Below the pieces are notes generated by a model. It saw only the letters and a program-made list of their open reading frames with translations. It was not told where the DNA came from and searched no databases. Below are positions 3,797 to 17,236 of a stretch of DNA of 33,715 nt, one piece after another (position 1 is the stretch's first letter; each line of letters starts with the position of its first letter). The stretch lies in IMG/VR virus record IMGVR_UViG_2534682164_000009. One strand, given 5' to 3'. The position numbers were made by a program, and so were the translations under genes. Source of the DNA: a virus (lineage: Duplodnaviria > Heunggongvirae > Uroviricota > Caudoviricetes).

Positions 3797-4137
3797 CGAC
3801 TTTTACCAGAGAGCAGTTAATAGCTCACGCAGAGGAGACTATTGAAGCACAGAGACTGTGCATACCGGGCACAATCGACCATGACATCATCCGCACATAT
3901 AAGATGGATATTGCTGTTCTGGAAATCGCACTGGTATCGCTGGCAGCAGAGCCAGCCGGTAAATTGCATGAATACAAACCAGTGGGATATCAGCGTCTGG
4001 TCGATGAGTTAACCATGCTGGTAAAGCAGTTAACCTGGCAACTGAGAAAAGCGAAGCCAGACTGCAAATTACCGGATAAGGCGATGAGTTATCTGGAGCG
4101 GAACGGACTGATAAGCGTGGAGGATATTTTACGATGA
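3793..4137 (+). CDS. hypothetical prophage protein (114 aa), paralogous to the upstream 55-aa ORF
   Basis: Shares MTT(I/F)T(K/R)E start and (I)AL(A/V)SL(E/A)AEP motif with the 55-aa ORF; translationally coupled. Confidence 0.55.
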
Positions 4138-4217
4138 CCTGGCCTGAAGCATTAACAACGGTAGGAATTGCGATGGCGGTGGCGCTGGTGGTGTATTCGA
4201 TTTGCCGCTGGGGATAA
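4134..4217 (+). CDS. putative 27-aa single-helix membrane peptide
   Basis: Own translation [30 protein letters not shown] overlaps the preceding stop (ATGA). Confidence 0.3.
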
Positions 4218-4428
4218 AAACGGTTTGCGGGAAAAGGAGAGTTAAGTAGAATTGCAGCGGGTGCTTGAGGCTATCTGTCTCAGGCATGAACACCAAAAGG
4301 CAGATAGAGAAAAGCCCCAGTTAACATTACGCGTCCGGCAAGACGCTTAACATTAATCTGAGGCTCAATCTATGAACGGCAAATCTAGGTTAGCCTCTTA
4401 CGTGCCGAAAGGCAAGGAGAAGCAGGCT

Positions 4429-4584
4429 ATGAAGCAGCAAAAGGCGATGTTAATCGCCCTGATCGTCATCTGTTTAACCGTCATAGTGACGGCACTGGTA
4501 ACGAGGAAAGACCTCTGCGAGGTACGAATTCGAACCGGCCAGACGGAGGTCGCTGTCTTCACAGCTTACGAACCTGAGGAGTAA
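4429..4584 (+). CDS. hokD: Hok/Gef-family type I toxin (HokD/RelF-like)
   Basis: 51-aa MKQQKAMLIALIVICLTVIVTALVTRKDLCEVRIRTGQTEVAVFTAYEPEE matches the Hok family and, as recalled, HokD; intrinsic terminator follows; an in-frame upstream ATG (4372) could extend it. Confidence 0.85.
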   Translation: MKQQKAMLIALIVICLTVIVTALVTRKDLCEVRIRTGQTEVAVFTAYEPEE

Positions 4585-4652
4585 GAGACCAGGCGGGGGA
4601 GAAATCCCTCGCCACCTCTGATGGGTCAGGCATCCTCAATGCACCCACACTT

Positions 4653-4679
4653 AACCCGCTTCGGCGGGTTTTTGTTTTA
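4653..4679 (+). terminator. rho-independent terminator after hok
   Basis: Hairpin AACCCGC-TTCG-GCGGGTT followed by a T-run. Confidence 0.7.
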
Positions 4680-4800
4680 TTTTCAACGCGTTTGAAGTTT
4701 TAGATGGTGCCGGAATAGAATCAAAAATACTTAAGTAGCGCGCAGGGAGAAGAGGGATGGACCCCGAACAGGGGAGTGCTATTTATCTGGAAGGATTCTG

Positions 4801-5064
4801 TTGATGAAAATCGAAGAATTACGTGAAATTTTTAGTGAAGATGGCCTCTATACTGTGCGCGTTGAGAATGGCGCTATTGTCAGCCACTGCCGTATTAAAT
4901 GTTTACAGTCTCAACAAAGGAAGAGTGGAGCTGCGTTAATTCATTTTGTGGATGGGCTTGTGACGGATGGTTTTATTTCGCGTGCAAATGAATTTGTCAC
5001 ATCGTTGCCGTCTCTGAAAGAAGCTGGGATTAAGGCTGGTTTTTCTGCTTTTGAAGATGAGTGA
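4801..5064 (+). CDS. hypothetical small protein, Rem-like by position next to hok
   Basis: 87-aa ORF; neighbourhood hok - small ORF - YdfU-like - Q resembles recalled K-12 Qin order hokD-rem-ydfU-quuQ. Confidence 0.45.
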   Translation: MMKIEELREIFSEDGLYTVRVENGAIVSHCRIKCLQSQQRKSGAALIHFVDGLVTDGFISRANEFVTSLPSLKEAGIKAGFSAFEDE

Positions 5065-16660: not shown

Positions 16661-17236
16661 ATGGCGATAAAAGGGCTTGATCAGGCGATTGACAATCTGA
16701 ACCGGGTTCGTAAAAACGCCATTCCGGCTGCTTCTGCAATGACCATTAACCGCGTGGCCACAACGGCGATTAATCAGTCTTCGTCACAGGTTGCCCGGGA
16801 AACCAGGGTGAGACGGAAACTGGTAAAGGAACGGTCCAGACTGAAACGGGCGACGGTCAGAAATCCGAATGCCAGAATTATCGTTAACCGCGGTGATCTC
16901 CCTGTGATTAAGCTGGGGATCAGAATGCTGGGGCGTCGTCCGAACAGCATACTCAAAGCCGGTCAGCATCGTTATCAGCGGGCATTTATCCAGCGATTAA
17001 ATAATGGGCGCTGGCATGTTATGCAACGTCTTCCCCAGGCCAGATATGAGGAGGGCAATGACGACAAGGGAAGGAAAAAGCGTAATCGCCTTCCCATTCA
17101 GGTGGTGAAAATCCCGATGGCGGCCCCACTGAAACAGGCATTTGATGAGAATGTTGACCGTATCCGGCGTGAACGCCTGCCTAAAGAACTGGCATACGCG
17201 CTGAAACAACAACTGAGGATTGCGATAAAACGATGA
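16661..17236 (+). CDS. Z: tail completion protein, lambda gpZ-like
   Basis: MAIKGLDQAIDNLNRV… and C-terminal …[24 protein letters not shown] match lambda Z. Confidence 0.9.
   Translation: MAIKGLDQAIDNLNRVRKNAIPAASAMTINRVATTAINQSSSQVARETRVRRKLVKERSRLKRATVRNPNARIIVNRGDLPVIKLGIRMLGRRPNSILKAGQHRYQRAFIQRLNNGRWHVMQRLPQARYEEGNDDKGRKKRNRLPIQVVKIPMAAPLKQAFDENVDRIRRERLPKELAYALKQQLRIAIKR

Follow-up and report, generated by a model that had tools for sequence, protein, structure and literature searches.

The window analysed here, a stretch of viral DNA of 33,715 nucleotides, contains a hok gene, an upstream mok frame that runs into it, a predicted antisense Sok RNA with its own promoter on the opposite strand, and a set of short boxes that would form a switch in the hok mRNA. 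The coordinates of these features are collected in Table 1.

Table 1. Features of the hok/sok locus, numbered from the first nucleotide of the window
Feature	Position	Strand	Description
hok mRNA promoter	4225..4252	+	-10 TAGAAT (4247-4252), good; weak -35, TTGCGG 4225-4230 or TTTGCG 4224-4229
Full-length hok mRNA	4259..4678	+	Predicted, from +1 to the terminator T-run
tac (mRNA 5' end)	4259..4270	+	Partner is fbi in full-length mRNA and ucb once the 3' end is trimmed (predicted folds)
Predicted Sok antisense RNA	4304..4380	-	About 77 nt; 5' tail GCCGUUCAUAG, long hairpin, 3' tail GGGGCUUUUCUCUAU; ends by homology
ucb (anti-SD box, AGCCCCAG)	4313..4320	+	Would sequester the mok SD in full-length mRNA; role as in the R1 model (PMC9841398)
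mok translation initiation region	4360..4374	+	SD GAGG 4360-4363, 8 nt, ATG 4372-4374; aligns with R1, hokB, hokC, Rac and Sp5
Hypervariable patch around and after the mok ATG	4365..4386	+	Entropy peak, maximum 2.1 bits at 4377; target of the Sok 5' tail
mok reading frame	4372..4584	+	70 aa, in frame with hok: 19-aa extension MNGKSRLASYVPKGKEKQA plus Hok
Sok promoter	4387..4415	-	-35 TTGCCT (4415-4410), 17-nt spacer, -10 TAACCT (4392-4387)
dcb (AGCCUC)	4392..4397	+	Pairs with the mok SD region in 3'-shortened folds
hok translation initiation region	4414..4431	+	SD AAGGAG 4414-4419, ATG 4429-4431; read from the sequence; invariant across alleles
hok toxin gene	4429..4584	+	51 aa; ATG 4429, stop 4582-4584; 100% identical to K-12 HokD (RelF)
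fbi (fold-back inhibition)	4634..4646	+	Complementary to the mRNA 5' end
Intrinsic terminator of hok mRNA	4653..4680	+	7-bp stem (4653-4670), 5 G-C pairs, 4-nt loop, T-run; terminator scan

The hok ORF had been picked out, with its length and both of its ends, in a preliminary description of this DNA, and it is present exactly there. Its translation, MKQQKAMLIALIVICLTVIVTALVTRKDLCEVRIRTGQTEVAVFTAYEPEE, matched the Pfam profile HOK_GEF (PF01848) over positions 1-42 of 42 with 82.9 bits (E 1.2e-23), where the gathering score is 22 bits. The peptide follows the family pattern in its length of 51 aa, the sequence MKQQKAMLIALIVICLTVIVTALVTRKDLCEV..., an N-terminal hydrophobic helix and a TRK-LCE core, and a protein alignment showed that it has the invariant columns common to HokB, HokC, R1 Hok and HokW. 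The protein to which its computed identity is complete is E. coli K-12 b1562, and PGAP names the homologue HokD. Matches to NCBIfam profiles stayed below the curated cut-offs, which says nothing about a protein that is identical to K-12 HokD. The hok SD was partly paired in the predicted fold of the full-length mRNA. Toxicity was seen for HokW, which is 92% identical and whose 51-aa ORF alone suffices (PMC8621323), and by homology with HokW and other homologues the Hok of the window is probably toxic as well.

The hok mRNA would start from a promoter whose -10 hexamer, TAGAAT, aligns with TATAAT of K-12 hokC and TAGGAT of hokB and lies 7 nt 5' of the conserved GGGTGC start. A generic sigma-70 promoter scan of positions 4100-4850 missed the promoters of both hok and Sok, and its only match was an unrelated one on the + strand at 4692-4721. 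The hok promoter goes uncalled by a simple scan because its -35 is weak; both promoters are sub-consensus and below the scan threshold, and their placement is therefore by homology only. An Rfam-style search, which the preliminary description had proposed, gave a match to RF01794 ('sok antitoxin') at 4259-4434 on the + strand, covering the full model (1-157) with 112.4 bits (E 4.9e-25), where the gathering score is 59. Position 4259 corresponds to the first position of the model, and the first bases match the 5' end of R1 hok mRNA as represented by the hok F primer (PMC1635323). Because the model runs from the hok mRNA 5' end to the hok AUG, RF01794 represents the sense leader, with Sok on the opposite strand inside it. 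For annotation this means that an Rfam 'sok' match marks the sense leader and not the antisense gene. A terminator after hok and a structured 3' region had also been proposed. The stem at 4653-4670 with its T-run was found by the terminator scan, and the fold of 4259-4678 was far better than that of shuffled sequence (dG -169.2, z -6.76), so that both proposals hold.

The same description had noticed an ATG at 4372 in frame with hok, and had taken the resulting extension to stand instead of the overlapping mok frame of classic loci. The in-frame ATG is real: it lies 57 nt 5' of the hok ATG, and the ORF list shows the frame open through the hok start, giving a 70-aa ORF at 4372-4584 whose 19-aa extension is basic (5 K/R vs 1 D/E). 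It is also correct that classic loci have mok out of frame, insofar as this is true of plasmid R1, where the mok start, 58 nt upstream of that of hok, is in the +1 frame and the encoded Mok has 70 aa (computed from sequence). The R1 hok mRNA sequence used here matches many plasmids at 100% over 332 nt, and agrees with the R1 primers (PMC1635323) and with a 70-aa Mok starting at 116-118 (PMC9841398). The words "instead of", however, were mistaken. An alignment of the leader with those of R1, K-12 hokB and hokC, phage Rac and Stx2 phage I makes ATG 4372 the positional homologue of the mok start; its GAGG SD, its spacing and the TAGCCTCTTAC box downstream of it are those of R1, hokB and hokC. ATG 4372 is mok by position.

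The in-frame arrangement is not peculiar to the window. In the RefSeq annotation of K-12, mokC (16751..16960) and hokC (16751..16903) have their stop codon in common, and mokC starts 57 nt upstream and in frame. The hokW locus of Sakai Sp5 (ECs_1245) has a 213-nt, 70-aa in-frame ORF annotated as 'regulatory protein MokC for HokC', and one R1-like IncF plasmid also has mok at 57 nt, in frame. The spacing is 58 nt for K-12 mokB and likewise in the phage Rac record, where both mok and hok are annotated. Among 80 IMG/VR viral loci with an identical Hok, mok lies at 57 nt and in frame in 66, as it does in the window; in 11 it lies at 56 nt, so that Mok has 19 aa and its TGA overlaps the hok ATG, and in the remaining 3 the leader is absent, as in K-12. 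Five of the 80 have the window's exact 75-nt leader. We further surveyed the Enterobacterales with one genome per species, which yielded 50 non-duplicate leaders, 38 of them scorable and 12 outside the simple pattern. The spacing was 58 nt (+1 frame, as in R1) in 19 of the scorable leaders, 57 nt in 14, and 56 or 59 nt in 5. More than one mok frame was found inside each of the HokD, HokC, HokB and R1-Hok subfamilies, and spacings of 56, 57, 58 and 59 nt all turn up in single Hok subfamilies.

These results show that the mok frame does not define the hok/sok family. The R1-type frame, at 58 nt and in which Mok ends a little before the hok stop, is not that of the window at 57 nt, and the frame should not serve to diagnose hok/sok loci. 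Translation of mok is reported to be required and its product not, and stop codons placed after the hok ATG are harmless (PMC9841398). Because only the translation of mok up to the hok start matters, and not the Mok peptide, an in-frame mok is a common natural variant; the frame survey in turn gives comparative support to what experiments had concluded, that the Mok peptide has no relevance. In the searchable papers we found neither an explicit statement on the in-frame arrangement of mokC and hokC nor a systematic account of mok frame variability, and a 2026 preprint surveying Hok proteins set Mok aside as hard to predict.

The antisense RNA, which the preliminary description had considered impossible to place from sequence alone, can be placed by homology. 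K-12 sokC, which is annotated, has its 5' end opposite nt 9 of mokC, and its 3' sequence GGGGCTTTTCTCTAT is identical in the window. R1 Sok has its 5' end opposite mok nt 10, and the sokW Northern probe YO-592, when mapped, ends at mok nt 9 (probe from PMC8621323). On the basis of sokC, R1 Sok and the primers and probe for sokW, we predict Sok to be complement(4304..4380). It had earlier been expected opposite 4330-4430, which fits in part: the predicted RNA lies partly inside that interval and partly outside it, with the promoter at 4387-4415. The predicted fold of Sok (dG -32.9, z -5.98) consists of a 5' tail, a stem-loop and a U-rich 3' tail.

The Sok promoter is positionally equivalent to TTGCGC-17-TATCCT of R1, and its -10 is the very hexamer changed by primer YO-421 (sense TAGGTTAG to CCGGCTCG), the change that made the promoter-less sokW construct, which became toxic (PMC8621323). 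Among 66 unique alleles the Sok -35 is invariant and the -10 nearly so. R1 Sok recognises the loop at the mok start through an 11-nt tail (PMC1635323). At the sequence level the window has what is expected of a cis-antisense Sok, namely a promoter inside the leader, a 5' tail that can pair with the mok start, a stem-loop and a U-rich end.

Column entropy was computed over the same 66 unique alleles to assess conservation across the locus. It was zero or near zero in tac, ucb, the mok SD and ATG, dcb, the Sok -35, the hok SD, the hok coding sequence and fbi, and it peaked in the hypervariable patch around the mok start (Table 1). All six differences between the Sok RNAs of the window and of Sp5 lie within their first 10 nt. 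The mok frame is unconstrained, because indels occur in the patch that the Sok 5' tail targets. We infer that the patch may diversify in such a way as to prevent cross-talk between co-resident hok/sok copies, the frame shifts probably being a by-product. The frame survey suggests that, where one cell has several hok/sok copies, the Sok 5' tail and its target are what diversifies and determines specificity.

RNA folding was used to examine how the leader and the 3' region of the mRNA might pair. In the minimum-energy fold, tac (4259-4270) paired with fbi (4634-4646) through 12 base pairs with one bulge, and in the full-length fold ucb (4313-4319) paired with the mok SD region (4359-4365). In folds ending at 4622 or 4630, tac (4259-4265) paired with ucb (4312-4318) and SDmok (4360-4365) with dcb (4392-4397), and folds ending at 4618 or 4626 had a 5' hairpin (4261-4271/4277-4287) in place of the switch. 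The predicted folds reproduce the switch of the R1 model, from tac/fbi with SDmok/ucb to tac/ucb with SDmok/dcb (PMC9841398), and the 5' hairpin is plausibly the metastable hairpin which that paper describes for the nascent mRNA. The tac/fbi pairing was found in almost all related loci that have a leader and enough downstream sequence, and the TAGCCTCTTAC box (dcb) is kept in R1, hokB, hokC and phage loci. Among close relatives tac and fbi showed no covariation, both elements being invariant within the clade, and it is this invariance that leaves the pairing without covariation support there. RNAalifold, run on 15 variants of the mok hairpin, recovered only the invariant GAGGC/GCCUC stem and no compensatory pairs, a result limited by loop indels that defeat the alignment.

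The locus is widespread in E. coli. Megablast with the 471-nt region gave matches, annotated hokD, in 4933 of 5426 complete E. coli genomes (about 90%), with a median of 2 and a maximum of 9 copies per genome. It also matched 78 phage records, in which the labels were 'MokW', 'HokD toxin', 'host killer protein' and 'gef'. In the window the locus lies in the nin/Q region of a lambdoid prophage, in the early-right region and with hok upstream of Q. A prophage of E. coli 042 has the same order, from small nin-region ORFs through hokD, DUF968, RusA and antiterminator Q to a methyltransferase, followed further downstream by an Ile/Arg/Arg tRNA trio, a SASA esterase, a holin and a lysozyme, all on the hok strand. 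A hydrophobic 27-aa ORF upstream (4134-4217) was considered as part of the module and rejected, as it stands beside hok in only 12 of 80 loci. With hok and Q on the same strand, one might speculate that early rightward transcription collides with the convergent Sok promoter on induction. The Sp5 copy differs from that of the window in both place and orientation, which is a caution for the collision idea.

Taken together, the region 4225-4680 is very probably a complete and ordinary type I toxin-antitoxin locus belonging to the hok/sok family, of the hokD/hokW type and carried by a lambdoid prophage. The sequence shows the elements and their conservation, and with them the predicted alternative folds, and nothing in it contradicts this explanation. 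For the ends of its transcripts, for 3' processing and cleavage by RNase III, and for its toxicity and role in biology we draw on the homologues, which suggest the following course of events. Processing of the mRNA 3' end, cutting of the duplex by RNase III and killing when Sok is lost are known for R1 and in part for hokW-sokW. By homology with R1, a weak promoter would give a stable mRNA of about 420 nt, in which tac pairs with fbi and ucb locks the mok SD, making the mRNA inert both to ribosomes and to Sok. Slow trimming from the 3' end would remove fbi, after which the 5' end could capture ucb and the mok start region could refold into a hairpin with dcb, open to either ribosomes or Sok. 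The short-lived Sok of about 77 nt, made from the promoter inside the leader, would bind with its 5' tail the loop around the mok ATG and block translation of mok and hence of hok, and RNase III would cut the duplex. Should Sok be lost, ribosomes would translate mok through the hok start region, and the 51-aa Hok would depolarise the inner membrane.

Two other explanations were weighed against an active hok/sok locus. The first is that the sequence is intact and yet functionally silent, a chromosomal hok copy, decayed or domesticated, whose expression never reaches a toxic level. Such silence would agree with the weak hok -35 and with two promoters below the threshold of a generic scan; a weak hok promoter, however, is normal for the family. 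Earlier work cited by the Hok survey preprint reported that the chromosomal hokA, hokB and hokC were unable to mediate post-segregational killing, and for this reason a classical plasmid-stabilising activity is not guaranteed for the present locus either. Against decay, the locus is free of any IS element, frameshift or disrupting stop codon, and the near-identical hokW-sokW of Sp5 is expressed and functional (PMC8621323). The regulatory elements are moreover invariant in 66 alleles while the neighbouring sequence is variable, which indicates purifying selection. We hence consider a silent copy quite improbable. That the true or main toxin is the 70-aa in-frame ORF, with no separate mok, as the preliminary description had implied, and with Sok directly repressing an N-terminally extended Hok, deserves very little credence: ribosomes starting at 4372 must indeed make 70 aa, there being no stop from 4372 to 4584, and the basic extension would be compatible with a cytoplasmic N-terminus before the transmembrane helix, but the hok SD AAGGAG and ATG 4429 are invariant, the fusion is dispensable (loci with an identical Hok have mok at 56 nt, or at 58 nt in the +1 frame), the locus varies most in the first residues of the extension, K-12 hokD has the identical Hok without any leader, and the 51-aa HokW ORF is toxic by itself (PMC8621323).

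An ordinary hok/sok locus is hence the reading that we retain. Within it, we mention tentatively, as an idea that is on balance doubtful, that the 70-aa extended Hok of in-frame alleles could be an extra membrane-active isoform of the toxin. Sok would then control a toxin directly, where otherwise it acts through translational coupling alone, and indels in the hypervariable Sok-target loop would switch the frame and toggle the locus between one and two toxic products. For annotation, the value of the analysis is that the hokD-type locus of the window is complete and has the mok and Sok that routine annotation leaves out.

The closest known system is hokW-sokW of Sp5 in O157:H7 Sakai (ECs_1245; Takada et al., 2021; PMC8621323), the leader of which differs from that of the window at 12 of 173 nt. 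The two have in common the in-frame mok ATG at 57 nt with its 70-aa ORF, the tac and fbi boxes, and an identical Sok stem-loop, 3' tail and promoter (-35 TTGCCT, -10 TAACCT). They differ in the Sok 5' tail and its target after the mok ATG (at 6 of the first 10 nt), in a 3' terminator region that is unrelated, and in the last residues of the toxin, TAYEPEE in HokW against VDYESEK in the window, where the proteins are 92% identical overall. In Sp5 the locus is on the minus strand, close to attR and past the tail genes; in the window it stands upstream of Q. Experimentally, hokW-sokW is a type I toxin-antitoxin system with the antisense RNA sokW. It also gives the nearest evidence on a role in the prophage: after mitomycin C the sokW RNA vanishes and HokW appears in a RecA-dependent manner, and phage release falls to half when the locus is missing (PMC8621323).

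In K-12, hokD (relF) of the Qin cryptic prophage codes for a Hok that is 100% identical to that of the window, and the two 3' UTRs, fbi and terminator included, are almost the same. In contrast to the window, relBE there replaces the leader up to the hok SD, and tac, ucb, mok and sok are absent. Because the K-12 leader has been replaced by relBE, the window holds the complete form of the hokD locus. The K-12 hokC (gef)/mokC/sokC locus has the same architecture, with mok in frame at 57 nt and the 3' sok tail GGGGCTTTTCTCTAT as in the window. Its HokC is 82% identical to the Hok of the window, its sokC hairpin is 18 nt shorter (59 nt vs about 77 nt), and IS186 lies immediately downstream of hokC.

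The hok/sok (parB) locus of R1 is plasmid-borne, with a plasmid-stabilising role, and has tac, ucb, SDmok, dcb, SDhok and fbi all in common with the window. R1 Sok, of 64 nt, likewise consists of a 5' tail, a hairpin and a U-rich tail, with its promoter at the equivalent place. Unlike in the window, mok of R1 starts 58 nt upstream in the +1 frame, its 70-aa Mok is unrelated to Hok, and the Hok proteins are 41% identical. In summary, the locus is one that is already known, one more copy of the module studied in R1, K-12 and Sp5.

The Rfam family RF01794, named 'sok antitoxin (CssrC)', matches the window at 4259-4434 on the sense strand, a span that corresponds to the hok mRNA leader from +1 through the hok AUG. 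Because the family covers this sense-strand leader, automated annotation based on RF01794 would assign 'sok' both an incorrect strand and incorrect ends. The other features of the locus and of the prophage considered here are listed in the table.

Coordinates of features in and around the hok locus and in the downstream prophage region
Feature	Window position	Strand	Source or prediction
Small hairpin GUGCC-GAAA-GGCA, just upstream of the hok SD	4401-4414	+	
Hydrophobic 27-aa ORF	4134-4217	+	ORF list
hok codon 47, TAC (Tyr47), within CTTACGAAC	4567-4569	+	
Three tRNA genes	9339-9588	+	ARAGORN: Met(CAT), Arg(TCG), Arg(TCT)
STnc100 (Rfam sRNA family), two tandem copies	9664-9853; 10131-10340	+	Rfam, 123.6 and 161 bits

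Within the hok leader, the stem of the small hairpin differs between alleles by compensatory changes, TGCC/GGCA versus GACC/GGTC. The equivalent stem is GCGC/GCGC in plasmid R1 and GCC/GGC in hokB. On the opposite strand, the Sok -35 element is contained in this hairpin.

In the hok coding sequence, the Tyr47 codon lies in the context UACGAA, which resembles what we take to be the TadA target motif, and A4568-A4572 are unpaired in the predicted fold of the full-length hok mRNA. According to a preprint surveying Hok proteins, the mRNAs of hokC, hokD and hokE also show hokB-like editing, located at the Cys46 position. Since codon 47 is, by our count, one residue from Cys46, the two positions may correspond.

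Upstream of hok, the start codon of the 27-aa ORF overlaps the stop codon of a preceding 114-aa ORF (ATGA), and a Pfam search with the 27-aa ORF returned no match. Its first bases are present in primer YO-432 of the hokW-sokW study (PMC8621323), and therefore Sp5 has those bases upstream of hokW. Of the 80 related loci, viral contigs encoding an identical Hok protein, just 12 preserve the open frame, with a small number of substitutions; the ORF is therefore no fixed component of the hok module.

Exact or near-exact counterparts of E. coli or plasmid hok loci were also found in assemblies that carry the labels Veillonella, Acinetobacter, Xanthomonas, Streptomyces, Ferruginibacter, Oscillibacter, Dysgonomonas and Vagococcus (genome-contig matches L101, L110, L116, L121-L123, L137 and L155). 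Short contigs carry most of these loci. A genuine presence outside Enterobacterales seems less probable than contamination or mis-binning.

Further downstream in the prophage, for the first tRNA gene, called Met(CAT) by ARAGORN, the E. coli 042 and Sakai annotations give tRNA-Ile of the ileZ type. The trio is thus the ileZ-argN-argO set, which is typical downstream of Q in lambdoid and Stx prophages. Directly downstream of the trio lies the tandem STnc100 pair, at the site where Stx phages such as Sp5 carry stx2AB.
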